Of a stretch of DNA of 15,900 nt, positions 1,196 through 14,919 are shown one piece after another; position 1 is the stretch's first letter, and the number at the start of each line of letters is the position of its first letter. Both the position numbers and the translations under genes were made by a program. The DNA is taken from the NCBI GenBank assembly GCA_016235455.1, contig JACRKZ010000145.1, positions 1 through 15,900 of the forward strand, given 5' to 3'. The notes under the pieces are model-generated. The model was not told where the DNA came from. It saw only the letters and a list, made by a program, of their open reading frames with translations, and did no database searches. The stretch is from Armatimonadota bacterium. Lineage in GTDB: Bacteria; Armatimonadota; UBA10988.

Positions 1196-2161
1196 TCAGC
1201 CGGCGAGTTCGGGCACATGGATGCGCTCGGGATTCTCGGCCAGGGCCGGCGTCGACAGGTAGCGCTCGCCGGTGTCGGGCAGGATGACCACCACTAGCTT
1301 GCCAGCGTTCTCGGGGCGCTTGGCCACGGCGATGGCCGCCGCTGCCGCCGCGCCGCTGGAGATGCCGACCAGTATGCCTTCGTCCCGCGCGATGGAGCGC
1401 GTGGTGTTGATGGCGTCCTGGTTCTCCACGGTGACGATCTCGTCGACCACGTCCAGGTCGAGCACGCCCGGCTTGAAGCCGGCGCCGATGCCCTGGATCG
1501 GGTGGGGGCCCTTGGCCTCGGGCCCGCGGCTCAGCACGGCCGAGGCCGCCGGCTCCACCGCGATGATCTGCAGGCTCGGCTTGCGTGGCTTGAGCGCACG
1601 GGCGATGCCCGTGATGGTGCCGCCCGTGCCTACGCCCGCCACGACGATGTCGACGGCGCCGTCGGTGTCGCGCCAGATCTCCTCGGCCGTGGTCTCCGCA
1701 TGAATCTGCGGGTTGGCCGGGTTCTCAAACTGCTGCGGGATGAACACATTGGGGTACTCGGCGGCGATGGCATCCGCCTTGCGGATGGCGCCCGGCATGC
1801 CCTCGGCGGCCGGCGTCAGCACCAGTTGCGCGCCCAGCGCCTTGACCAGGTTGCGCCGCTCCACCGACATGCTCTCGGGCATGACCAGCAGCAGCTTGTA
1901 GCCACGCGCCGCGGCCACCATGGCCAGGCCGATGCCCGTGTTGCCGCTCGTCGGCTCCACAATGAGCGTGTCCGCGTTGAGCTTGCCTGCCGCCTCGGCC
2001 GCGTCCAACATCGACACGCCAATGCGCTCCTTGACACAGCCCAACGGGTTGAAGGACTCCAGCTTGGCCGCGACCGTGGCCACGGCGCCTTCGGTCACCC
2101 GGTTCAGCCGCACCAGCGGCGTGTTGCCCACCAGCTTCGTCACGTTGTCTGCGATAGCCAT
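1196..2161 (-). CDS. cysK: Cysteine synthase A (O-acetylserine sulfhydrylase)
   Basis: 321 aa. [17 protein letters not shown](PLP)[63 protein letters not shown]. Confidence 0.97.
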
Positions 2162-2269
2162 TGTCGTTGCCTCTCCGTCAGCCCAGCGGCTGTGTCTTCG
2201 CCCTCACCGACAGTGTGGCACACATTCTACGGTTTGTACAGGGGGAATGGGGATATTCTCTCGTGCCGC

Positions 2270-2297
2270 TTGACAGGCGCATTCCACCGACTACACT
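2270..2297 (+). promoter_or_regulatory. Putative sigma70 promoter of the oxidoreductase cluster
   Basis: TTGACA (2270-2275), 16 nt, TACACT (2292-2297), then GAGGA RBS at 2308-2312. Confidence 0.65.
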
Positions 2298-2317
2298 CCG
2301 CCGAGTCGAGGACGATG

Positions 2318-3931
2318 ATGACGCGACGCGACTGCTTGGCGGGAGGTGCGGCGATGGTAGCGGCGATGGCAACGGGGCTCGGCGCGGCCGAGACCGAATG
2401 GGATGTCGTGGTCTACAGTGGGGTGCCGTGCGGCGCAGCCGCGGCGGTGATGGCGGCGCGCGCCGGAGCGCGGGTGCTGCTCATCGAGCCGACGCACCAT
2501 GTGGGCGGTCTGAGCACCAGTGGCATCAACACCGCCGAGACCGAGCACATGCTCAAGTGGACCATCGGCGGGTTCGCCGACGAGTTCTACCGGCGCATGG
2601 GTCGGCACTATGGCAGTGGCCGGCCCGAGTACTACTTCGAGTCCAGCGTGGCGGAGGCGTGCTACGTGGCCTTGCTGGCCGAGGCCAAGGTCACGGTGCG
2701 CTATGGCCTGCGTGTCGAGCGCGTCACCAAGGATGGCGCGGAGCTGACGGGCCTCGTGTTGAGTGACGGCTCGACCGTGTCGGCCAAGGTGTTCGTCGAC
2801 GCCAGCTACGAGGGCGACCTGATGGCGCGGGCCGGGGTGAGCTACGCGGTGGGCCGCGAGTCGCACGCGGAGTACGGTGAGGAGGCCGCCGGCGTGCGTT
2901 TCGACAAGACCGTGCGCCGCGCGGCGACGGTCGATGCCGACGGCCGGCTGCTGCCGGGCATCAGCGACTGGGCGCGCAACTTGAGCGAAGGCGCGGCCCA
3001 TCGCGGCGTCATGAACTACAACTTCCGGCTGACGGTGGCCAAGGACCCGCGCTACAAGGTGCCCATCCCCGAGCCCCGGCACTACGACCGCGGGCGGTTC
3101 GCGCTGCTCGAAGGCTGGCTGCGGGGCAAAGCGGCGCGGGCCGAGGAGGTCAAGCTTGAGCACATCCTCGACCTCTACGAGCGGCGCAACGGCAAGTTTG
3201 AGCTGAACAACAAGCAGTCGGCCATCGTCTCGCTGGGCCACTTCGGCGGGCAGTTCGACTGGCCCGATGCCAACTGGCCCCAGCGTCAGACCATCTTCGA
3301 CGATCACCTCGACTACACGCTGGGCCTGCTGCACTTCCTGGCCAGCGACGACTCCGTGCCGGCCTCGGTGCGCGCTGAGATGAAAGCCTGGGGACTGCAC
3401 CGCGAGGAGTTCGCCGACAACGGCAATCTGCCCTATCAGTTGTACGTGCGCGAGGCGCGGCGCATGAAGGGCCTGCGGATCGTCACCCAGCAGGATGTCC
3501 AGACTGACCGGCGCAAGGCGGACAGTGTCGGCTTCTCCAGCCATTTCATCGACTCGCACCATGTGCAACGCCTGGCGCTGTCACCGACCGAGTTCATCAA
3601 CGAAGGGCGCATCTGGCGCATGGGCTATGCCTACCAGATCCCCTACGCGGCGCTGACGCCCAAGCCCGACCAGGCGGGCAACCTGCTGGTGCCGGGAGCG
3701 GCCAGCTTCAGCCATGTGGCCTTCTGCTCCTATCGGTTGGAGAGCGTGTGGATGATAGCGGGTCATGCGGCGGGCGTGGCGGCGGCCATGGCGGCGCGGG
3801 CTGATGGCCGTGTCGACCGGATCGACATCGGCGAGTTGCAGGCCAAACTGCGCGCCGGCGGCCAGGTGGTGGACTTCGTCCCCGGCCAGCCCGAGAAGTG
3901 CGAGCACCTGAACGGCCCAGCGGAGTTCTAG
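2318..3931 (+). CDS. Tat-exported FAD-dependent oxidoreductase (FAD_oxidored/PF12831-like)
   Basis: True start is ATG 2318 (or 2315), not 1502. Signal MTRRDCLAGGAAMVAAMATGLGAA. Motifs DVVVYSGVPCGAAAA, LIEPTHHVGGLSTSG, FVDASYEGDLMARAGV, YVREARRM, DSH, YQIPYAALTPK, NLLVP..S.SHVAF.SYRLE. Confidence 0.9.
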   Translation: MTRRDCLAGGAAMVAAMATGLGAAETEWDVVVYSGVPCGAAAAVMAARAGARVLLIEPTHHVGGLSTSGINTAETEHMLKWTIGGFADEFYRRMGRHYGSGRPEYYFESSVAEACYVALLAEAKVTVRYGLRVERVTKDGAELTGLVLSDGSTVSAKVFVDASYEGDLMARAGVSYAVGRESHAEYGEEAAGVRFDKTVRRAATVDADGRLLPGISDWARNLSEGAAHRGVMNYNFRLTVAKDPRYKVPIPEPRHYDRGRFALLEGWLRGKAARAEEVKLEHILDLYERRNGKFELNNKQSAIVSLGHFGGQFDWPDANWPQRQTIFDDHLDYTLGLLHFLASDDSVPASVRAEMKAWGLHREEFADNGNLPYQLYVREARRMKGLRIVTQQDVQTDRRKADSVGFSSHFIDSHHVQRLALSPTEFINEGRIWRMGYAYQIPYAALTPKPDQAGNLLVPGAASFSHVAFCSYRLESVWMIAGHAAGVAAAMAARADGRVDRIDIGELQAKLRAGGQVVDFVPGQPEKCEHLNGPAEF

Positions 3932-4592: not shown

Positions 4593-4607
4593 CTGGGAGT
4601 GCCCCGC

Positions 4608-6245
4608 GTGAACCACTTGAGCGGCGTCGTGCTCATCTGCTGCCTCGCTGCCTCGGCCGGCGCGCAGGACCTGTTCGACCTGCAGGGCCACATCGACCGG
4701 GCGGTGGCCGCGGGTCAGAAGACTATCACCGTCCCGCCGGGCCGCCATCGTGTCGCACCTCACGACCGTCAGCATCTGGTGCTGCGCGGCCTGAAGGACA
4801 CCACCATCGTTGCCGACGGTGCCGAGCTGGTCTGCACCGAGACGACGCGCGCGCTGACCATCGCCGACTGCACCAATCTCACGCTGCGCGGCCTGACCAT
4901 CGACTACGACCCGCTGCCGTTCACCCAAGGCCGCCTCACCGCGCTGTCGGCGGACAAGAAGGTGCATGACATCGAGCTATTTGACGGCTATCCCGCGGCC
5001 GCCGCGGCGCGCAACTTCAAATACGAGATCTACACGCCCGACACGCGCCTCCTGCGCTGTGGCGACCACTATCCGGCGAGCGTGACGCCGACCGGCGAGC
5101 GCGGCCTGCGCGTGACGATGAACCAAGGTGCCGCGGCCGATCCCGAGCAGGTGGGCGACATCATCGTCATCGGCGCCGAGTTCGCACCGCATGGCAGCAT
5201 TCCGCACGCGGTCGAGTGTTCGGCCAGCACGAACGTCAGGCTCGAACGCGTCACGCTCTACGCCAGCAACTGCTTCGGCTTCCTGGAGTACAACTGCGAC
5301 GGCAGCGTCTACGACCGCTGCGTGATCGACCGTCGCGCGCCGGGCGACGATCCGGTCAAACGTGCCGACCCACGCGCCCGCTCGCTCGACGCCGACGCCT
5401 TCCATAGCAAGCACGCCTTGCGCGGCCCGTCGTATCTGGGCTGCGTGGCCCGGTACATGGGCGACGACGGCATCAACATCTGCGGCGACTACCATCTGGT
5501 CGGCTCGGCCGCCGGCACGGAGTTGCGCGTGCTGGCCAAGCAACGGCTGAACATCGCCGTGGGTGATCCCGTGGAACTGCTGACCTACGAGGGCCGGCGT
5601 CTGCCCAACGCCACGGTGACCGCCGTGACGCGGCTCGACACCATTACCGACGAGGAGCGTGCCTGGCTGGTCAAGCAGCGCATGGACGAAGGCCTGCGCA
5701 GCCGCGAGTGCCGCGAGGCCTGGCAGATCACCCTCGACCGCGCCGCCGATTTGCCGCGCGGCTCGCTGATCGCCTCGGCGCGGCGCATGGGCAACGGGTT
5801 CCGCGTCATCGGCTGCGAGTTCGGCTTCAACCGCTCCCGCGGCATCCTCATCAAGGCCAGTGACGGGGTGGTCGCCAACAACCGCCTCGTGGGCAACTGG
5901 GGCCCGGCCATTCTCTGCTCACCGGAATTCTGGTGGCTGGAGAGCGGCAGCTCCAACAACGTGGCCATCCGCGGCAATCAGATCACCGACTGCCGCTCAC
6001 GCGCCATTGTGGTCGAGGCGACCGGCGGGGCCGGTCTGTTCACCGGCACGCCGGCCGCCGCCGGCGCGCACAACAACATCACCGTCGAGGGCAACCAGGT
6101 CAGCGGCGGACCACAGCCGAGCGTGGTGCTGACGTCGATCCTGGGACTGCGGCTGACCGGCAACCGCTTTGTCGGCCTGCCGGCGGGGACCGAGCCGATC
6201 AAGCTGACCAACTGCGAGCAGGTCAACCAGTCGGACAACCAGTAG
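4608..6245 (+). CDS. Secreted right-handed parallel beta-helix protein, GH110 (alpha-galactosidase)-related glycoside hydrolase
   Basis: GGGAG RBS fits GTG 4608 (track start is 4599). Signal MNHLSGVVLICCLAASAGA. IDYDPLPFTQGRL, DADAFH...GDDGINICG, NRSRGILIKASDGVVANN, repeated N-I-x-GN beta-helix coils. Confidence 0.8.
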   Translation: MNHLSGVVLICCLAASAGAQDLFDLQGHIDRAVAAGQKTITVPPGRHRVAPHDRQHLVLRGLKDTTIVADGAELVCTETTRALTIADCTNLTLRGLTIDYDPLPFTQGRLTALSADKKVHDIELFDGYPAAAAARNFKYEIYTPDTRLLRCGDHYPASVTPTGERGLRVTMNQGAAADPEQVGDIIVIGAEFAPHGSIPHAVECSASTNVRLERVTLYASNCFGFLEYNCDGSVYDRCVIDRRAPGDDPVKRADPRARSLDADAFHSKHALRGPSYLGCVARYMGDDGINICGDYHLVGSAAGTELRVLAKQRLNIAVGDPVELLTYEGRRLPNATVTAVTRLDTITDEERAWLVKQRMDEGLRSRECREAWQITLDRAADLPRGSLIASARRMGNGFRVIGCEFGFNRSRGILIKASDGVVANNRLVGNWGPAILCSPEFWWLESGSSNNVAIRGNQITDCRSRAIVVEATGGAGLFTGTPAAAGAHNNITVEGNQVSGGPQPSVVLTSILGLRLTGNRFVGLPAGTEPIKLTNCEQVNQSDNQ

Positions 6246-6256
6246 CGGCGCGCCGC

Positions 6257-8548
6257 CTACTTTGCCGCCACCACATAGGGGATGGCGGGCAGATGGCCGA
6301 GCGTGTAGCGCTGAGTCTTCTTCTTGCCTTCCGGTCCGGTCTCGACCTCGGCGGCGACGGCGACGATGAGGTTGTCGGCATCGCCTGGTTTGATCGTGGC
6401 GGGGTCGATCTTGAGCACCAACACCACCGAGCCGGCACCGGTCTTGGCCTCCTGCAGGCTGATCCCCTTGGGCGGGTCGCTCAGGTCGAACTTGATCATC
6501 GGTGGCACGGGGCGAAGGCCGGTGCTGAGGATGATGCTGGCCAGGCCCGTGGTGGGTATCGGCACTGGCACACGCTGGGCGATGGTGACGCTGGGCACGA
6601 ACCGTGCCCCGCGGGCCGAGGCCACGACCAGCTCCCGGGCCGGCACGAGGTGCTTGAAGAAGAAGGCCTGCATGAGGTCGTCGGCGGGCGTCACCGGGCG
6701 GGTGATGACCTCTCGGCCGACGGTCGCGCGACCCACCATGATCAGGTTGAACGGCACGTCGACCGCCTTGGGGCCGGCATTGACCGTCAGCCGCACGCTG
6801 TCGCGCCCGGCCGGGATGCGGTTGCCGCTGAGCGTGAAGCCGGCCGGCGCGTCGCGCAGGACGATGTCGATGGGCCCGGTGAACCCGTCGCGTCGCGCCG
6901 CATGCACCGTGATCGGTGCCGAGAAACCTGGCGGCACGGTGATGGCTGACGACGACGTGCGAAGCGCGAAGTCGGGCCGCGGATCGCCCACGCGCAGCCG
7001 GTAGCCAAAGTCGGGACCGCCCGACTGCAGCGTGTCCGAGAGCATGATGCGGTACACGCCGTCGGCCGGCAGTCTGGCCAGCAGATACGAGTCGGCCTGG
7101 TTGGTGATCAGCCCCGCGGCCGGGTCATCGTAGTCGTCGTTGAGCGCGATTACCTTGCCCGCCGAATCCACGAGCCGCAGCAGCGAATCGAGCGACGACT
7201 GCAGCCGCCGTGCCATGACCTCGATGGCCACGCTCTGGCCGGCGCGCCCGCTGAAGGCGAACACATCGACATCGCCCGGCTGGCCGATGCGGCCGTTGAC
7301 CGTCACGGGCAGGGAAAGCAACTGCGGCCGGTCCAACGAGTTGTTGGGCTCGACCTCGCTGGCCTCGGGCAGGCTGTCCACCGCGTAGGCGATAGGATTG
7401 GGCAGCCACCGGCCAGGGATGAAGACGCTGCGCAGAATCTCGGCGCCGGGTTGGGTGTCCAGCGCGAAGCTGCTGGGCGGGATGTTCCAGCCGGTCAGCG
7501 ACACGCTGGCCTTGCTGCTCGTGCGCCCGCCCAGGGGCCAGATGCCGGTGACGAACGGCAGTTCACCCACCGCCACGCGATAGACAAAGTCTTCGCGGCC
7601 GCGCCAGATGGCGTCGCGCACCTCGAGGTCATACAGGCCGTCGGCGGGCACTTTGAACATGAGTACCGGGTCGGGGTCGTAGCGATAGTCGTCGTCGAAG
7701 GCGATCTCCCGACCGTCGCTGTCGTACAGCGCCAAGGTGGCCTGGAACCAGCCGGGCACGGCGTCAGCGAGATAGGGCGTGATGCGCCGGGCCTGAGCGA
7801 TCATGACCAACTGCTGGCCCTTTTTGGCGCGCAGGCGGTAGCGGTCGCTGTCGCCCGGCATGATCTGCCCGTTGATCATCACCGGCAGGTCGTAGGTCTT
7901 GAGCGGTGGCGGCGGCGCCTCGTTGACCCGGCGGAGCCTGGCGGGGCTGCCGGTCGGCTGGTCCTCCTCGACGATCTCGGGCAGAACGCCGACCTCGAAG
8001 TTCACGGGGTTGGACAGGCCCTGGTTGGTCTGCACGCGCAGTTGGTGGTAGCCGAGGGCGGCCTTCGGGTCGACGATGACATCGACGATGAGCGACTCGG
8101 CGATCTGCGCGTTCTCCTGGCGCTTGGGGTCGAACAGCTTGCGGGCCAGGGTCGACAGCTCGTCGACTGTCTTCTTGTCCAGGTCGCGTAGCCAGGGGTG
8201 GTCCGGCAGCTTGATCGGCTTGCCATCCTCCATCGGCTGTTCGAAGGCTCGGCCCGTCACCTTGGCGCGGATCAGCGCACCAATCACCTTGCCGATGTCG
8301 CCGAGCACCTGCTTGCCCAACGGCCGCACATGCTCCACCACCTTGGTGGTCAGACCGATGCCCGAGGCCTCGACCAGCCTGGGGCCGCCCAGGTCCTCGC
8401 CGCCCAATGTCACGCGCACCGTGGTGCCTTGCCGGCCACCGGCCGGGAAGGCATAGCCCAGGTGCGGATCGCGCCCGAAGCGTTGGGCCAGGGCCGCGGG
8501 GGCGAGCACCGCTGGCAACAGGCATAGTAAGGCGAGCCGACGAGTCAT
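6257..8548 (-). CDS. Secreted PPC (pre-peptidase C-terminal)-domain protein of the DUF1501/DUF1553 operon type
   Basis: Signal MTRRLALLCLLPAVLAPAALA. FPAGGRQGTTVRVTLGG start, two PPC-like repeats (ING.I..PGD.D.Y/F; AFDDD / ALNDD), EVEPNN, Ig-like C-terminal domains. No subtilase GTSMA motif seen. Alternative start at 8554. Confidence 0.85.
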   Translation of the reverse strand: MTRRLALLCLLPAVLAPAALAQRFGRDPHLGYAFPAGGRQGTTVRVTLGGEDLGGPRLVEASGIGLTTKVVEHVRPLGKQVLGDIGKVIGALIRAKVTGRAFEQPMEDGKPIKLPDHPWLRDLDKKTVDELSTLARKLFDPKRQENAQIAESLIVDVIVDPKAALGYHQLRVQTNQGLSNPVNFEVGVLPEIVEEDQPTGSPARLRRVNEAPPPPLKTYDLPVMINGQIMPGDSDRYRLRAKKGQQLVMIAQARRITPYLADAVPGWFQATLALYDSDGREIAFDDDYRYDPDPVLMFKVPADGLYDLEVRDAIWRGREDFVYRVAVGELPFVTGIWPLGGRTSSKASVSLTGWNIPPSSFALDTQPGAEILRSVFIPGRWLPNPIAYAVDSLPEASEVEPNNSLDRPQLLSLPVTVNGRIGQPGDVDVFAFSGRAGQSVAIEVMARRLQSSLDSLLRLVDSAGKVIALNDDYDDPAAGLITNQADSYLLARLPADGVYRIMLSDTLQSGGPDFGYRLRVGDPRPDFALRTSSSAITVPPGFSAPITVHAARRDGFTGPIDIVLRDAPAGFTLSGNRIPAGRDSVRLTVNAGPKAVDVPFNLIMVGRATVGREVITRPVTPADDLMQAFFFKHLVPARELVVASARGARFVPSVTIAQRVPVPIPTTGLASIILSTGLRPVPPMIKFDLSDPPKGISLQEAKTGAGSVVLVLKIDPATIKPGDADNLIVAVAAEVETGPEGKKKTQRYTLGHLPAIPYVVAAK

Positions 8549-8576
8549 GACCATCTCCCGACAGTGGCGCGGCCGA

Positions 8577-9905
8577 TCAGATCAGTTCGGTGACGCGGCC
8601 GCCGCCTTCCGCCGCGGGCATGAGCTTGATGTCGAGCCCGCGCGGGTTGGGCATGGGCGAATCGGGGTCGATGCCCAGCAACTGATACATGGTGCCGATC
8701 AGGTCCTGCGGGCTCACCGGCCGGTCCTTGACCTGTTCGCCGCGGGCATCGGAGGAGCCCACGACATGGCCGCCCTTGAAGCCACCGCCGGCCACCAGCG
8801 CCGAGAAGACCGAGCCCCAGTGGCTGCGGCCACCGTTCCACGGCGCCTCCCAGCCGATCTTGGGCGTGCGGCCAAACTCGCCGCCACACCACACGATGGT
8901 CGAGTCCAGCAGACCACGGTCCGACAGATCCGTAATCAGTGTGCTGAGCCCCTTGTCCAGTTCGGGCAGCTTGCGGCGCATGGTCTCGAAATGCTGCTTG
9001 TGCGTGTCCCAGCCGCCGTAGTTGACCGTGACGTACGGCACGCCGGACTCCACCAGCCGCCGCGCCATGAGGCACGACTGACCAAAGGTGGTGCGGCCGT
9101 AGCGCTCGCGCAGGTCGTCTTTCTCCTGGTTCAGGTCGAACAGCTTGGCGCCGTCGCCCAGGATCAGGTCGTAGGCCGCCTTCTCGGTCTGGTCCAGCTT
9201 GGCGAACTGGTCGTTGCCCGGCATGGCCGCGCCCAGCGAGTCCAGCCCGTGCAGCAGGTCGCGCCGCAGCTTCTGGCGGTCGTCGGTGATCTGCTCGGAG
9301 ATCACGCCTTCCACGGCGAAGCGCTTGGCGGCCGGGTCGCCACCGGTGGCGAACGGCTTGTACTTGGGTCCCAGGAAGCCCGACTCCGAGAAACGGCCCT
9401 GGGGCTTGGTCAGCACCACGTACGGCGGGATCATGCCCCGGTAGCCGGCATCGTAGCCGCGCAGCAGCGAGACCACGGCGCCCATGCACGGATAGACCAG
9501 CCGGTCGCCGGAGCGACGGCCCGTCTGCACCAGGTACGACGCGGTCTCGTGGCTGTTCACGCCGTGGGTCATGGAGCGGATGACCGAGTACTTGTCGGAC
9601 AGCGGCGCCAGTAACGGCATCAACTCGCTGATGCGCAGGCCGTCGGTCTTGGTGGCGATGGGCGAGGTGAGCGGCCCGGCGTAGTCGCGGCCGGCCTCGG
9701 GCTTGGGGTCGAAGGTGTCGATGTGACACGAACCGCCCCACAGCCAGATCTGAATGACCGCCTTGGCCTTGGCCCCGGCGGCGGGCTTGACGACGGGGGC
9801 CTGCGCTTCCACGGCGCCCTGGCACAGCAGGCCCAGACCGGCTGCGCTGGCCAGCATCGCGGCGATTGCCTCCCGACGGTCCATCTCGCTCGAATATCGA
9901 CTCAT
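8577..9905 (-). CDS. DUF1501 family protein, Tat-exported
   Basis: MDRREAIAAML...AEA Tat-like signal. AKAVIQIWLWGGSCHIDTFDPKP, YGRTTFGQSCLMARRLVESGV, GGWDTH, GEFGRTP, GRSHW, AGGGFKGGHVVGSSD. GAGGT RBS. Confidence 0.93.
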   Translation of the reverse strand: MSRYSSEMDRREAIAAMLASAAGLGLLCQGAVEAQAPVVKPAAGAKAKAVIQIWLWGGSCHIDTFDPKPEAGRDYAGPLTSPIATKTDGLRISELMPLLAPLSDKYSVIRSMTHGVNSHETASYLVQTGRRSGDRLVYPCMGAVVSLLRGYDAGYRGMIPPYVVLTKPQGRFSESGFLGPKYKPFATGGDPAAKRFAVEGVISEQITDDRQKLRRDLLHGLDSLGAAMPGNDQFAKLDQTEKAAYDLILGDGAKLFDLNQEKDDLRERYGRTTFGQSCLMARRLVESGVPYVTVNYGGWDTHKQHFETMRRKLPELDKGLSTLITDLSDRGLLDSTIVWCGGEFGRTPKIGWEAPWNGGRSHWGSVFSALVAGGGFKGGHVVGSSDARGEQVKDRPVSPQDLIGTMYQLLGIDPDSPMPNPRGLDIKLMPAAEGGGRVTELI

Positions 9906-9926: not shown

Positions 9927-11468
9927 TCAGTGGCGGTACAGGAATTCCTTGGTGTTGAGCAGCGCCCAGGCCATGTCCAGCCCGGCCTGGAACGGCGCGC
10001 CTGCGTAGCGTCCGGCGGCGGCCAGTTCGGCGTCGGTCGGCTGCCGCGAGAGAATGAGCACATACAGCCCGCGGACCATCGTCGCGCGGTTGCCGCGCGA
10101 CGTCAGGCCCAGGCTGCGCAGCTGCGGGCTGGATTCCAGCCGCCGTTGCAGGTCACCCGAGTTGAGCATGTACAGCCGCTGCGAATCGGTGGGCTGGTTG
10201 TTGCGTTCGGAGTCCAGGCCGGTATCGCGCGGCGGGCGCCCGAACATCTCGAGGAACGAGCTGGTGATGCTGCCATCACCCAGCGCCACGGCGCGCTGGT
10301 TCTCGGGCATCCAGGTGAACGGCTCGGGCACCTGCGAGCTGTAGGAGTCGGTCTGGCCGGTGATGGCCAGCAGCGCGTCGCACAGCACCTCGGCGTCCAG
10401 TCGCCTCACGGGGTACGCGGCGAACAGCGCCTCGGCGCCGGGTGCCGTGCTCTGCGCGATGGCCGACTGCTGGTAGCAGCGCGAACCAACGATGATCTTG
10501 ATCAGCGCGCGCAGATCGAACCGGGCCTTGACCAGCTCGGCCTCCAGGTAGGACAGCACCTCGGGCAGGGCCGGTGGGTTGTCGGGTCGGATATCGTCGG
10601 TCTCATGGACGATGCCCCGGCCAAATAGCCAGGCCCACATGCGGTTGGCCAGCGACCGCGCGAAGTAGGGGTTGGTCGGCGCGGTGAGCCAGGCGGCGAA
10701 GGCCCGGCGTGGGTCGGCGCCAGCGGCGATGCGCTCGCTCTTGCCATCGGGATAGGTCACGTCCAGCGGCTCGACGATGGTCGGATCGAGGCAGACGATC
10801 TCCTCTTTCCACTCCTCGGTCTTCTTGAAGATCAGCCGTGAGAAGAACCTGGCCAGGTCGGTGCGCTTCGCCGCCGGCCATTTGTCCAGGCGGGTGCCCA
10901 TCCAGGTCAGCGCCACTGCCTCGGCGATGCCGTTGGCATCACGCGTCTGGATGGCGCGGTAGAAGTTGGCCGGCGCCACGCGGAAGTTGCTGCCGTTGGC
11001 GGTGAGCAGCTCGGTGACCACCTGGTCGAACGGCCGGTTCGACTCCACCTGGTCACGGACCCAGCGGTGGTAGGCCTGCACGGCATTCGGCCACAAATTG
11101 ATGGGGAACTCGGCCTTGATGCGCAGCGTGTCGCCCCAGCGCATGGCCCAGTAGTCGGCGAACTCGGGTCGGGTCAGCAGTGCGTCGACCAGCCTGGCTC
11201 GCCGGTCGGACCGCTTATCCTGGGCGAAGGCATTCACCTCGTCCGGCTTGGGCAAGGTGCCCAGCAGGTCGATGAACACGCGCCGCAGATAGACCTCGTC
11301 GGAGCAGGGCCGCGCCGGGGTCAGCCGCCGCGCCGCCAAGGCCTTCTCGTGCAGCACATCCAGCGGCGTGGCCGCGATGGGCCAGGCGGCCAACTCATAC
11401 GGTGCCAGCGGGCCGGCCGCCGAGGCGCCCAGGGCCATTGTCCGCCGCGCACTGTCCAAGATGCCCAT
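9927..11468 (-). CDS. DUF1549 (PSCyt2) + DUF1553 (PSD1) domain protein, apparently without the heme motif
   Basis: SDEVYLRRVFIDLLGTLP, LVDALL..PEFADYWAMRW, NRPFDQ, NPYFARSLANRMWAWLFGRGIV, RRLDAEVLCDA, FGRP, DMAWALLNTKEFLYRH. Start 11468 preferred (GGAGG/AGAGG RBS) over 11498, which overlaps the predicted -10. Confidence 0.9.
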   Translation of the reverse strand: MGILDSARRTMALGASAAGPLAPYELAAWPIAATPLDVLHEKALAARRLTPARPCSDEVYLRRVFIDLLGTLPKPDEVNAFAQDKRSDRRARLVDALLTRPEFADYWAMRWGDTLRIKAEFPINLWPNAVQAYHRWVRDQVESNRPFDQVVTELLTANGSNFRVAPANFYRAIQTRDANGIAEAVALTWMGTRLDKWPAAKRTDLARFFSRLIFKKTEEWKEEIVCLDPTIVEPLDVTYPDGKSERIAAGADPRRAFAAWLTAPTNPYFARSLANRMWAWLFGRGIVHETDDIRPDNPPALPEVLSYLEAELVKARFDLRALIKIIVGSRCYQQSAIAQSTAPGAEALFAAYPVRRLDAEVLCDALLAITGQTDSYSSQVPEPFTWMPENQRAVALGDGSITSSFLEMFGRPPRDTGLDSERNNQPTDSQRLYMLNSGDLQRRLESSPQLRSLGLTSRGNRATMVRGLYVLILSRQPTDAELAAAGRYAGAPFQAGLDMAWALLNTKEFLYRH

Positions 11469-11497
11469 GCCTCTGGTCCTCCGCCGTCTGCCCCGCA

Positions 11498-11525
11498 TAG
11501 ACGATACCCTTTTGAGGTACGTTCA
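11498..11525 (-). promoter_or_regulatory. Putative ECF sigma factor promoter for the DUF1553-DUF1501-PPC operon
   Basis: Minus strand TGAAC (11525-11521), 17 nt, CGTCTA (11503-11498): the AAC/CGT pattern typical of ECF promoters. Confidence 0.55.
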
Positions 11526-11567: not shown

Positions 11568-12875
11568 CTACCTGGCCAGTTCGAGCAGGACCTGGCCGGC
11601 CAGGTTGGCAGTGACCAGCGCCAGCCAGGCTACGGCCCATTGTCGCTGGCCGCGGTCGAGTTCGCACCACGTCCAGCCGCCGCACGCGGCGATCATCAGC
11701 AGCGGCACCACGCCGAACCGGTAGCGACTGTGACCATACGACACGGCGTGGATCAGCGTCAGCGCGGCGACGGCCAACAGCGTCATCTGGCCCAGATCGC
11801 GCCGGCGCGCCACGCTGGCCGCCAGGCCGATCCCGCCGAGCGCCAGCAACAACCAGCTCTCCAGCGCGCACAGGCCCGCCGCGGCGAGTGTCGGCAGTCG
11901 GCCGTGCCGGCCATACAAGCCGCCTTGGATGCCGCTGGCCAAGCCGCGCTCGGGCCCCCACAGCGCGCTGGACTTGGTGATCAGGCCGAGCAGGAAGCGC
12001 GGCGGGTCGGCGACGATACGGCTGGCTGCGGCGCGCATGGCGGCCCGTTCCATCTGCCGTTCACTGGCCCCGCTGGGCAGCGGCCAGGGCTTGTCGTCCT
12101 CATCCACCAGGTCCCAGGCGCGCAGCAGGGGCGTGCGCTCGTGATTGCCCCAATAGAGGTTCAGTGCGCCGTTGGTGTCGACGAGTACCCAGTCGCCCAG
12201 GACCACCCTATTGCGCAGCGTCCACGGCGCGATGACCAGCGCTGCCGCCAACCCGCACCACAACGCCGGACGCCAGCCGCGACCGCATCCCAGCCACAGC
12301 ACCACGAGCCCGACCAGCACCAGTGCCGAGCCGCGGCACAAGCAGGCCAGACCCAGCGCCGCGCCCGCCGCGGCATGGCGACCGGCGCCCCTGGCCGTGA
12401 GCAGCGCCAGCAGCCCAGCCAGCAGGCACAGTGCAAAGAGCGTCTCTGAGAACAGGCTGTGACTGTAGTAGAGCAGCGTGGGGCTGAGCGCGGCCCAGGC
12501 CGCGAGCCAGGCCAGGCCGCGCCGGCCGACAGGGCCCGCGGCTGCGGCCAGCGCGATGATCAGCCCGACCAGCGCCGAGCCCAGCGCGGCCTGGGTGAGG
12601 CGCGCGGCGGCCGTGGACGGGCCGGTCACGCGGTAGACGGCGCTCAGCACCAGGGGCCAGAGCGGCGGGCGGTAGGCGGTGGCGCGCCCGTCGGCGGTAA
12701 CGTAGCCCTGCCCGGCGGCCAGCCGCGAGGCCAGGCCGTGGTACTCGATCTCGTCGGAGATCGGTGCCGTCGAGAGCGCCGGCAGCAGCGTGAGCAGACG
12801 AACCGCCGCTGCCGCCGCGACCACGAGCCATAGTCGGCGGCCAACGGCTGGGCCGGGTTGCGGTGCGATGGTCAT
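11568..12875 (-). CDS. GT-C fold membrane glycosyltransferase (ArnT/PMT-like, GT39/GT83-type)
   Basis: Likely start ATG 12875 (MTIAPQ...). Many hydrophobic segments. SDEIEY first-loop acidic motif, AYRPPLWP, SETLF, APWTLRN, TNGALNLYWGN, RYRFGVVP. Confidence 0.85.
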   Translation of the reverse strand: MTIAPQPGPAVGRRLWLVVAAAAAVRLLTLLPALSTAPISDEIEYHGLASRLAAGQGYVTADGRATAYRPPLWPLVLSAVYRVTGPSTAAARLTQAALGSALVGLIIALAAAAGPVGRRGLAWLAAWAALSPTLLYYSHSLFSETLFALCLLAGLLALLTARGAGRHAAAGAALGLACLCRGSALVLVGLVVLWLGCGRGWRPALWCGLAAALVIAPWTLRNRVVLGDWVLVDTNGALNLYWGNHERTPLLRAWDLVDEDDKPWPLPSGASERQMERAAMRAAASRIVADPPRFLLGLITKSSALWGPERGLASGIQGGLYGRHGRLPTLAAAGLCALESWLLLALGGIGLAASVARRRDLGQMTLLAVAALTLIHAVSYGHSRYRFGVVPLLMIAACGGWTWCELDRGQRQWAVAWLALVTANLAGQVLLELAR

Positions 12876-13046
12876 GGCGCTGGGCGACTCGATTCCTGGA
12901 CAGACTGACCGCCGTCCGCGCCCATCATGCCACGTTCGGGCGGGCGCGCTCAACCCACCGCGCGGGCCGCCACCCACACATCTCACTCCGAGCGTGCGCC
13001 AGCAGGCCACGCCGCGCGCGTAGCGCGAGTCGCGCACATCGCCACA

Positions 13047-13075
13047 TTGACACACGCGCACCCAACTGGTAGCAT
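13047..13075 (+). promoter_or_regulatory. Sigma70 promoter of the transketolase operon
   Basis: TTGACA (13047-13052), 17 nt, TAGCAT (13070-13075), with extended TG at 13067-13068. Confidence 0.7.
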
Positions 13076-13135
13076 CCACACGATCTGTCGGACGTTAGCT
13101 CTGGGGGCCATCAGGCACGACGGCAGAGGGGATCG

Positions 13136-13972
13136 ATGTCGATGAATGCGCTGTCGCAAGCCGAGTGCGTGGCCAAGTGCCGCGTTATCCGGCGCCATAT
13201 CATTGAGATGCTGGCCGAGGCTGGCAGTGGACACCCGGGCGGATCGCTATCGGCGGCCGAAGTCGTGACGGCGCTGTACTTCCATTTCCTGCGCCAGGAT
13301 CCTGCCCAGCCCGAAGCGGCCGACCGCGATCGCTTCATCCTCAGCAAGGGCCACGCCGTGCCGGTGCAGTACGCCGCCATGGCCGAGGCCGGCTACTTTG
13401 AGGTGAGCGAGCTGAGCACGCTCCGCCGGATCGATGCGCGCTTGCAGGGCCATCCTGTCAAGGGCACGCTGCCGGGCATCGAAGCCTCGACCGGAGCGCT
13501 CGGCCAGGGCCTGTCCATCGCTTGCGGCCATGCGCTGGCGGGCAAGATGGACGCTGCCGGCTACAAAGTCTTCTGCATGATGGGCGACGGCGAGATCGAT
13601 GAAGGCCAGGTGTGGGAAGCGGCGCTGTTTGCCGCGCACCAGAAGCTGAGCAACCTGATCGCCATCGTCGACGCCAACGGCATTCAGCTCGACGGCCGTG
13701 TCGAGGACATCCTCGGCCTGGAGCCGCTGGTGGACAAGTGGGCCGCGTTTGGCTGGTCGGTCATCGAGATCGACGGCAACGATATGGGCCAGGTGTTTGA
13801 CGCGCTGGAACGGGCCGTGGCCAACACTTCGGGCCAGCCGGTGTGCATCATCTCGCGCACCGTCAAGGGTAAGGGCGTGAGCTTCATGGAGAACGGCGTC
13901 GAGTGGCATGGCGTGGCGCCCACGGCCGAGGAGGCCGAGCGGGCCTTGGCCGAGATCGGAGGCGTGGCATGA
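13136..13972 (+). CDS. tkt: Transketolase, N-terminal (TPP-binding) subunit
   Basis: GHPGGSLS, DRFILSKGHA, LQGHP, STGALGQG, GDGEIDEGQVWEA...VDAN TPP motif, KGKGVSFME, WHG. GAGGGG RBS. Confidence 0.95.
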   Translation: MSMNALSQAECVAKCRVIRRHIIEMLAEAGSGHPGGSLSAAEVVTALYFHFLRQDPAQPEAADRDRFILSKGHAVPVQYAAMAEAGYFEVSELSTLRRIDARLQGHPVKGTLPGIEASTGALGQGLSIACGHALAGKMDAAGYKVFCMMGDGEIDEGQVWEAALFAAHQKLSNLIAIVDANGIQLDGRVEDILGLEPLVDKWAAFGWSVIEIDGNDMGQVFDALERAVANTSGQPVCIISRTVKGKGVSFMENGVEWHGVAPTAEEAERALAEIGGVA

Positions 13973-14919
13973 GCAGCACCCGCGCACTGGGCCGCGCCAC
14001 GCGCGATGCGTTCGGCGACGTGCTGGTCAAGCTGGGCGCCGAACGGGGCGATGTGGTCGTGCTCGACGCCGACCTGGCTAAGTCCACCCGCAGCGGCAAG
14101 TTCCAGGCCAAGTACCCCGAGCGCTTCTTCGACATGGGCATCTGCGAGGCCAACATGTGCGGCGTGGCCGCCGGCCTGGCCGCCTCGGGCAAGACGGTGT
14201 TCATCGCCAGCTTCTCCTCGTTCCTGCTGTGCAAGGGCTTCGACCAGTTGCGCATGGCCGTGGCCTATCCCGGCGAGAACGTGAAGATCATTGGCACGCA
14301 CGGCGGCATCACTCTGGGCGAGGACGGCGCGTCGCAGATGAGCATCGAGGACTTCGCCCTGGCCTTGAGCCTGCCTGGCGTGGTCGTCTGCCACCCGGCC
14401 GATGACGAGTCCGCCAAGCAGTTGCTGACGCAGATCGCCGCGCAGCAGGGCCCGGCGTACGTGCGCCTGGGCCGCGAGAAGGCGCCAACGCTCTACTCGG
14501 CGAACGACAAGGTCGAGCTGGGCCGCGCGCAGGTGCTGCGCGACGGCGGCGACCTGACCCTCGTGGCCAATGGCCTGATGGTCGGTCTGGCGCTCGATGC
14601 CGCGGAACAGATGGCCGCGACGGGTGTCGAAGCACGCGTGATCGATGTGCACACGCTGCGTCCGCTGGATAGCGCGACGTTGGCCGCCGCCGCCCGCGAG
14701 ACGGGCGCGATGGTGGTGGTTGAAGAGCATCTCAAGGTGGCCGGGCTGGGCTCGGTCGTGGCACAGGCGGTGGTCGAGAGCCACCCGGTGCCGATGCGCT
14801 TCGTGGGGTTGGAGGGTTACGCCGAGTCCGGCAGCCCAGCCGCCCTGCTGGCCAAGTATGGCCTGACCGCGGAAAAGATTGTCGCCGCGGCGAAAGAGGT
14901 CTTGGCGGCCAAGCGTTGA
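13969..14919 (+). CDS. tkt: Transketolase, C-terminal (pyrimidine-binding) subunit
   Basis: ATGA overlap with the upstream gene gives start 13969. ATRDAFG, LDADLAKST, FDMGICEANM, GEDGASQ, GPAYVRLGR, VEEH, ESG...LLAKYGL. Confidence 0.95.
   Translation: MSSTRALGRATRDAFGDVLVKLGAERGDVVVLDADLAKSTRSGKFQAKYPERFFDMGICEANMCGVAAGLAASGKTVFIASFSSFLLCKGFDQLRMAVAYPGENVKIIGTHGGITLGEDGASQMSIEDFALALSLPGVVVCHPADDESAKQLLTQIAAQQGPAYVRLGREKAPTLYSANDKVELGRAQVLRDGGDLTLVANGLMVGLALDAAEQMAATGVEARVIDVHTLRPLDSATLAAAARETGAMVVVEEHLKVAGLGSVVAQAVVESHPVPMRFVGLEGYAESGSPAALLAKYGLTAEKIVAAAKEVLAAKR

Follow-up and report, generated by a model that had tools for sequence, protein, structure and literature searches.

A DUF1549/DUF1553 subfamily without haem attachment motifs, encoded in a three-gene operon of an Armatimonadota bacterium

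The stretch of DNA analysed here, hereafter the window, comprises 15,900 nucleotides of an Armatimonadota bacterium (contig JACRKZ010000145.1 of assembly GCA_016235455.1) and carries, at 9927..11498 on the minus strand, a gene for a 523-residue protein of the DUF1549/DUF1553 (PSCyt2, partial/PSD1) family. Proteins of this family have been called cytochromes since their first description; the PSCyt and PSD domains were reportedly first described by Studholme et al. in 2004. The window protein has no haem attachment motif, and it belongs to a large and widespread subfamily that lacks the CxxCH segment altogether. Its gene heads a trio, being followed by genes for a DUF1501 protein and for a pre-peptidase C-terminal (PPC) domain protein. 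The explanation that accounts best for the data, to which we assign a probability of roughly 0.7, is that the window protein represents a motif-less PSCyt2/PSD1 branch acting in a three-part exported system whose core would be independent of haem. DUF1549/DUF1553 and DUF1501 are among the largest function-orphan families of Planctomycetota and Verrucomicrobiota; the search made here gave 24,241 representative clusters at 50% identity. A conserved, single-copy version with neither haem-type motif separates the haem question from that of core function.

The missing CxxCH segment and the motif-less branch

Both domain assignments of the window protein rest on scores above the Pfam gathering score, which was taken to define membership: PSCyt2/DUF1549 (PF07583) was matched with an E-value of 3.9e-30 and 105.8 bits against a cut-off of 29.8, over profile positions 2-152 of 209 only, and PSD1/DUF1553 (PF07587) with an E-value of 1.1e-43 and 149.9 bits over positions 2-242 of 244. 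A motif scan of the whole protein returned no CxxCH, CX3CH, CX4CH or other CXnCH motif, and since cysteine occurs only at residues 65, 236, 341 and 373, there is no CxxC either. A sequence-only reading of this DNA had claimed as much, proposing that about ten residues were missing near ALTWMG..ARFF (residues 196-219, 10842-10913), and alignment bore this out. The only other PSCyt2 gene in the host genome, on contig C144, encodes a protein (P0275) that is 45% identical to the window protein over 517 residues by BLASTP; the sole 10-residue gap of the window protein faces SCARCHGHPD of P0275, which reads FMGARVSCARCHGHPDEPWTVDD at the site where the window protein reads WMGTRLDKWPAAK. When the window protein was aligned by MAFFT with the 150 best representatives from a library of 1.84 billion proteins, motif-bearing rows read C-x-x-C-H-x-H-P-x-x-x-W at the gap, and the gap of the window protein recurred in most close relatives. 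The junction is R203-L-D-K206 (10881..10892, minus strand), at which motif-bearing relatives hold 10-11 more residues, x-C-x-x-C-H-x-H-P-x. The other stretches quoted in the sequence-only reading, NPPALPEVL (10554-10580) and FGRPPRDTGLDSER (10203-10244), were likewise located within 1-3 bases of the places it had given.

Decay or an assembly error confined to this genome is not a credible source of the junction, and we regard it as refuted; no support for it was found, the sole oddity being an N-terminus without a hydrophobic signal peptide. The reading frame is intact, the Pfam scores are high, the operon is conserved and the junction is shared by hundreds of homologues. The junction is spanned by a contig from a second study (run X5, record 24), which matches 10798-11498 without gaps and with three base differences; in one public run, possibly the source, the gene is present in full with a single difference. 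No insertions or deletions in the gene were listed across the four public runs compared. The share of sampled words present in any RNA run did not exceed 0.06.

The 120 best near-length relatives are 57-82% identical to the window protein and mostly about 520 residues long, and CxxCH occurs in none of them. Nor does a C..CH-type motif occur in any of 119 longer relatives (917-2615 residues), one of which, P0316, has an N-terminal extension rich in alanine, lysine and glutamate. Among the 600 matches listed, in a collection with one genome per prokaryote species, at least 551 stretches encode a relative. By record title, the 80 loci retained for comparison come from Armatimonadota, Hydrogenedentota, several orders of Planctomycetota, Verrucomicrobiota, Victivallales, Sumerlaeota/WS1, Zipacnadia, Acidobacteriota, Nitrospirales and Omnitrophota; the motif-less branch spans at least ten phylum-level groups. 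Its gene, whose product is cysteine-poor and about 520 residues long, is mostly single-copy, with one PSCyt2 match in most of 44 trio-bearing genomes.

Residues were compared over 111 rows covering at least 85% of the core; at the site, C..CH is present in 43 of these rows and absent from 68. Neither CxxCH, CX3CH nor CX4CH was present anywhere in the 68 motif-less proteins, some of which extend to 1374 residues, so that a true subfamily without the motif, as first proposed from the window alone, is upheld in representatives, near-length and longer relatives alike. The accompanying proposal, a coordinated loss of several cofactor ligands, held in part and for a different set of residues. A second motif that had gone unmentioned, CX4CH (mostly C-N-x-G-x-C-H, also C-N-x-G-x-C-H-G), is situated some 350 residues before the CxxCH of PSCyt2 and occurs together with it in 35 of the 43 motif-bearing rows, whereas neither motif is found in any motif-less row; the eight motif-bearing rows without CX4CH are shorter proteins. 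At the position thought to have lost the histidine of NPPSH, asparagine is the usual residue (33/43 motif-bearing and 27/68 motif-less rows) and histidine is found in only 4 of 43 motif-bearing rows, so no conserved histidine was lost there. The C-E-C of CECER is indeed missing from all 68 motif-less rows and present in 30 of 43 motif-bearing ones, but it is also missing from the seven motif-bearing rows nearest to the subfamily, P0275 included; because these closest CxxCH-bearing relatives lack it too, its disappearance was not part of the event that removed CxxCH. As for the proposed signature AEFPINLWPNAVQAY (11070..11114, minus strand), the alignment shows that it marks the subfamily, though less exclusively than supposed, as the CxxCH-bearing sister group has a related EyPV..WPkav..Y. 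The protein ends in ..KEFLYRH, and its final residue, H523 (9927-9932, minus strand), hardly varies across the subfamily; motif-bearing relatives have histidine as their consensus there too.

A tree of the 111 rows was computed with IQ-TREE (LG+G4, 468 columns, the motif's own columns excluded) and was left unrooted. On the free tree the motif trait required at least three changes, against a mean of 34 after shuffling, and none of 500 shuffles gave a value as low; the window protein fell inside a clade of 55 rows, all motif-less, with a Shimodaira-Hasegawa-like approximate likelihood ratio (SH-aLRT) support of 96. A tree constrained to hold the 68 motif-less rows together was better than the free quick tree by 16.9 log-likelihood units, and as the approximately unbiased (AU) test gave it a p-value of 0.657, a single origin is not rejected. 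In the monophyly check suggested by the sequence-only reading, the motif-less rows are thus compatible with one split, and the motif-less state probably has one origin.

The same reading spoke of the segment as apparently excised; its absence is certain, but because the tree is unrooted, its deletion can only be inferred. The converse would be that the short form is ancestral, and that the CxxCH segment and the N-terminal CX4CH module were gained by the relatives with nothing deleted here. The unrooted tree allows for this, a single change suffices on the constrained tree, and DUF1800, another family encoded directly upstream of DUF1501 genes, has CxxCH in 0 of 13 segments. Even so, we judge such a gain to be improbable. 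Three CxxCH rows (P0158, P0169 and P0175) fall on the motif-less side of the free tree, as does P0150, which retains the segment without its cysteines, and junction length varies by 2-4 residues between motif-less subgroups, as would be expected after loss; for these reasons deletion is favoured. In addition, the Pfam model runs to position 209, and the match of motif-less proteins to it stops at about position 126-177.

The DUF1501 and PPC partners

The 523-residue protein is encoded at the head of its operon. Twenty-one bases downstream on the minus strand is the DUF1501 gene (8577..9905, 442 residues; Pfam E 4.2e-93), whose product has a twin-arginine N-terminus containing ..DRREAIAAM.., and 22 bases beyond it begins the third gene (6257..8554, minus strand), which encodes a PPC beta-sandwich protein of 765 residues with a signal peptide (P0004; Pfam PPC, E 1e-10). 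None of the three products was matched by an NCBIfam model. When the 80 related loci were compared by tblastn, 76 proved to have a DUF1501 gene immediately downstream and on the same strand, and 68 a PPC protein behind DUF1501. Ten of the 12 loci in which PPC was not matched end at or before the site, and the other two (L006 and L040) have at least 2.7 kb without a match. The order DUF1549/DUF1553, twin-arginine translocation (Tat)-signal DUF1501, PPC protein therefore describes a nearly constant three-gene operon.

As we read the data, the 523-residue protein, complete in length and belonging to an old branch of probably single origin that has neither CxxCHxH nor CX4CH, would act with the Tat-signal DUF1501 protein and the secreted PPC beta-sandwich protein as a three-part exported system. 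Its conserved helical core is predicted to be a non-catalytic partner or scaffold of the DUF1501 enzyme, and the PPC protein would be the third component, probably with a role in binding. The core job of the helical protein may involve neither haem nor electron transfer; we consider this assignment, partner or scaffold with a job free of both, to be fairly probable.

A larger relative of the operon is in print. The main text of Kamneva et al. (2012, PMC3542564) describes a cluster of four genes, encoding DUF1501, weak-PPC, PSCyt1-Big_2-PSCyt2-PSD1 and PSCyt1-WD40 proteins, from Planctomycetes, Verrucomicrobia and Lentisphaerae; the label 'cytochrome c motif containing domains' is given there to PSCyt1 and PSCyt2, for which a part in electron transport is proposed, and the terms 'heme' and 'CXXCH' are absent from that text. 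Three of these four genes are paralogous to genes of the window operon, and the DUF1501 neighbour and PPC-type signal-peptide protein which the cluster requires are both present in the window; the N-terminal CX4CH module, Big_2, the CxxCH of PSCyt2 and the WD40 gene are not. The host itself has a paralogous four-gene cluster (locus L003, contig C144, 1774-9821, minus strand), comprising a CX4CH/weak Big_2/PSCyt2(CARCH)/PSD1 protein, DUF1501, WD40 and PPC, and the three genes that it shares with the window operon are 45%, 55% and 43% identical in their products, the last value being that of the PPC pair. CxxCH is absent from the WD40 protein of this cluster, which sets it apart from the PSCyt1/WD40 architecture of the 2012 description, and the Pfam PSCyt1 model gives no match to the N-terminal CX4CH module of the C144 protein.

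Pfam found no PSCyt1/Big_2 N-terminal module in the 523-residue protein and no WD40 match among the window open reading frames (ORFs) scanned. Around the 80 related loci WD40 was matched twice, once on the opposite strand and once in a 1201-residue kinase-WD40 ORF, neither of which is of the module type. Because the trio has no N-terminal module, no CxxCH and no WD40 gene, it appears to be a stripped sister of the four-gene cluster. The elements K.T.EWKEEIV and E(F/Y)P..WP are common to the motif-less branch and the four-gene type and are absent from other family members.

The main texts of Kamneva et al. and of He et al. (2017, PMC5615132) also describe two-gene modules, in which a PSCyt1/PSCyt2/PSD1 gene is followed, as in the window, by one for a Tat-signal DUF1501 protein. 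The first proteins of those modules are of about 800-1400 residues, cysteine-rich, often equipped with carbohydrate-binding modules and present in many copies per genome, in contrast to the short, cysteine-poor and mostly single-copy protein of the trio. The four-gene relative of the trio has been published. Neither the lack of motifs in the branch nor its phyletic distribution was found in the literature searched, whose scope ended before the supplements of Kamneva et al. (S13/S14, S5) and He et al. (Text S1, Fig. S7), where clusters without PSCyt1 may be shown.

Across 29 DUF1501 partners of the branch, mean column identity was 70%; R10 and R11 were nearly invariant, and D66, T113, H114, D300, H302 and H362 were invariant. 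By its Pfam clan listing, DUF1501 belongs, we assume, to the alkaline-phosphatase/sulfatase superfamily. Our own comparisons lend weak support to this placement, because hhalign against ten sulfatases of the same genome gave a probability of 49% (E 1.7e-4) for a partial match of 37 columns, and Pfam Sulfatase matched DUF1501 with an E-value of 0.22. The host genome is rich in sulfatases (55 PF00884 matches), and two weak DUF1501 matches, on contigs C153 and C116, were located within genes for sulfatases.

Genes for DUF1501 enzymes also lie beside those of a second partner family without CxxCH. A weak Pfam match in the PSD1 region of one relative led to DUF1800 (PF08811), and in six of six tested DUF1800 loci (from L160-L173) the next ORF encodes a twin-arginine DUF1501 protein. 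The DUF1800 segments are cysteine-poor, with 0-2 cysteines, and free of C..CH. DUF1800 was matched in 57 of 121 genomes and not in the host genome; two of the genomes in this tally are unpublished, and none of their sequence was used. As in the window, a cysteine-poor, CxxCH-free protein precedes a twin-arginine DUF1501 protein, and DUF1800 would act like a haem-free partner of this enzyme family. The hhalign comparison of the window protein with DUF1800, colinear over 274 columns, gave no significant homology between PSD1 and DUF1800 (probability 3.9%, E 0.011).

The window protein was modelled by AlphaFold2 with 29 subfamily sequences (model m554bd9cd0f59), at a mean predicted local distance difference test score (pLDDT) of 90.2 and a predicted template modelling score (pTM) of 0.88. 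The model consists mostly of helices, with a small sheet over residues 222-257, and the junction forms a short link between helices 188-200 and 209-219. In a model of the core of the CxxCH-bearing paralogue (pLDDT 90.2, pTM 0.91), helices and strands follow one another in almost the same order. When solved structures were searched by sequence and by profile, nothing significant emerged for the helical protein or for DUF1501. In a wide search with VIA-align over residues of about 105-310, nearly all of the top 12 rows were phycobilisome linker (PBS-linker) chains, the best being 3ohw_A (Z 5.5, root-mean-square deviation 3.6, 122 aligned); the paralogue model matched the same chain with a local Foldseek probability of 0.92 (E 1.7), and profile matches to the linker were weak (E 0.15-0.18). 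The likeness to these linkers is one of helical arrangement, with a Z below the trusted level, no sequence significance and no functional link; as such a Z may reflect a common arrangement of helices, we take it as a lead to a scaffold-type domain and nothing further. Pfam DUF4214 gave weak matches in two relatives, over the region RRVYLD..G.LP..EV (residues 66-110), and the C-terminal ..YL..LSR.PT..E.. (residues 470-520) resembles a second copy of this element.

Cytochrome c maturation and the haem question

Cytochrome c maturation was scored by the presence of PF01578 (CcmC/CcmF/CcsA). The host, with three PF01578 matches, can make c-type cytochromes, and it has kept a CxxCH paralogue, so the motif-less state of its gene is not imposed by the host. 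Six of 50 trio-bearing genomes are without PF01578; they contain nine PSCyt2 matches, all of the short type. Among the 44 trio-bearing genomes with PF01578 only 4 contain a full-length PSCyt2, and the six others contain none; because it is so scarce among the 44, this set is uninformative for the contrast. The DNA pattern CxxCHxHPxxxW matched just 3 of the 44 genomes, and the Pfam search was used in its place.

Two phylum-wide samples were more telling. The first consisted of 401 genomes of the phylum of one retained locus (L063, whose record title names Verrucomicrobiia), with PSCyt2 in 133 and PF01578 in 235. PF01578 was present in all 40 genomes with full-length PSCyt2, as compared with 41 of 93 with short or weak matches only; in the remaining 52, all 56 PSCyt2 matches end at or before profile position 177. 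The second consisted of 381 genomes of the host's own phylum, of which 362 reach 90% completeness with no more than 5% contamination; in it, PF01578 was present in 162 of 162 full-length genomes versus 38 of 53 short-only genomes; the 15 short-form genomes without it are spread over five family codes. A motif-bearing gene in a genome without the maturation gene was met in neither sample. Full ORFs from PF01578-negative genomes, 39 in all (30 from the first sample and nine from the six trio-bearing genomes), all have the short junction and no C..CH-type motif. The suggestion that loss of CxxCH might track with missing cytochrome c maturation genes was thereby supported: PF01578-negative genomes have the motif-less type only, and all motif-bearing genomes of the two samples are PF01578-positive. 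Because motif-bearing genes are found only in genomes with a maturation gene, the motifs of the relatives are likely to be true haem c attachment sites. The pattern also gives indirect support to the suggestion that electron transfer is not the core function of the system.

It might be argued instead that the CxxCHxH of the relatives is a structural metal or disulfide knuckle which binds no haem, that the subfamily lost a dispensable loop, and that the link to PF01578 stems from lifestyle or ancestry. The extra histidine of the motif is suggestive of this, and CEC, a further cysteine pair, varies independently across the family. The paralogue model places the motif in a short helix (176-180) and a loop within the helical scaffold, and the two 10-residue blocks of residues 171-190 which contain it have mean pLDDT values of 82 and 66, the latter being the lowest away from the N-terminus. 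Neither model matched a structure of the PDB by Foldseek at an E-value of 0.001 or below (best E 0.53 for the window protein and 0.22 for the paralogue core), so that no haem-protein fold was recognised. On balance we think a knuckle unlikely. C-x-x-C-H is the canonical haem c signature, and adjacent cysteine and histidine residues rarely bind one metal ion; CX4CH comes and goes with CxxCH (35/43 versus 0/68); and PF01578 is present in every motif-bearing genome of both samples as against 41/93 and 38/53 of those with motif-less genes only.

Several points weigh against the reading of a haem-independent exported system, among them the unrooted tree and the two structural observations just given. 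The branch is not confined to cytochrome-less organisms, because 44 of the 50 trio-bearing genomes have PF01578. Fisher tests on the two samples gave values of 1.4e-11 and 1.4e-10, which overstate the association because kin genomes are not independent and were treated as though they were, uncorrected for ancestry; the tables also depend on lists copied by hand, in which PSCyt2 was classed as full-length or short by Pfam E-value (cut 1e-38), and completeness figures are absent for the first sample. Since aerobes have both features, the association could reflect lifestyle. The literature on DUF1549/DUF1553 and PSCyt1/2 yielded no haem assay for any PSCyt2 protein, and none of the 120 longer relatives listed is fused to DUF1501. 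Finally, the window copy has no hydrophobic signal peptide, its highest hydropathy over ten residues being 1.16 as compared with 3.1-3.4 in relatives, and its cellular location is uncertain for that reason.

Passage through Sec as an unfolded chain, directed by a hydrophobic signal peptide, is characteristic of c-type cytochromes. Relatives of the window protein bear classic Sec-type signal peptides, in place of which the window copy has the stretch SARRTMALGASA. Orthologues in four of five genomes of the same family have the hydrophobic signal peptide; P0006, a homologue of 82% identity, is without one, as is the window copy, and none was found upstream of the ORF in another frame. The N-terminus (11408-11498, minus strand) begins MRGRRRRTRGMGILDSARRTMALGASAAGP, which could be a weak twin-arginine signal. 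Tat export was rejected for the subfamily as a whole, because the relatives carry signal peptides of the Sec type.

If the core job of the helical protein needs no haem, this would explain why the branch persists in organisms unable to make c-type cytochromes. One may go a step beyond and regard the trio as the minimal haem-independent core of the PSCyt/PSD-DUF1501 system, with the haem c modules of its long relatives as redox-coupling add-ons, a tentative view to which we give somewhat less than an even chance. Were it true, the DUF1549/DUF1553 body would be an obligatory partner of DUF1501, and the haem modules would couple the enzyme to redox chemistry where cytochrome c maturation exists; the shedding of both haem motifs would have let the system spread, mostly in single copy, over at least ten phylum-level groups and into lineages without the ability to make c-type cytochromes, and the trio would be the simplest entry point to the job of the system. 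The genome comparisons constitute a first computational argument that the motif of the relatives depends on cytochrome c maturation, and the trio offers a small target of three proteins, the helical subunit of which is free of covalent cofactors.

Other genes of the window and its relatives

The host genome is 6.5 Mb in 185 contigs and 93% complete, and the window DNA has a G+C content of about 68%. Directly upstream of the operon, at 11568..13079 on the minus strand, is a gene for a multi-pass membrane protein of 503 residues with weak matches to PMT_2 and Agl23-like glycosyltransferases (E 8e-4 and 9e-7); no gene of this kind was a neighbour in the 80 related loci. Just one extra neighbour recurs there, a gene for a RidA/FkbO-like protein, which is absent from the window; it was found in 14-15 of the 80, in 4-5 of these nearby. 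In ten loci (L005, L031, L034, L046, L052, L054, L057, L070, L073 and L081) it lies 3' of the PPC gene on the same strand, and encodes a protein of about 390 residues with RidA/L-PSP and FkbO/Hyg5-like N-terminal domains.

The window further encodes a PALP-family pyridoxal-phosphate enzyme (1196..2161, minus strand), an FAD_oxidored protein (within the ORF 1502..3931, plus strand) and a right-handed beta-helix protein (within the ORF 4599..6245, plus strand), the last of which converges on the PPC gene. Beyond the membrane protein gene, a transketolase is split over two genes on the plus strand, 13136-13972 and 13903-14919, whose ORFs overlap by about 70 bases; the first encodes the N-terminal thiamine-diphosphate part, and the second the pyrimidine-binding and C-terminal part.

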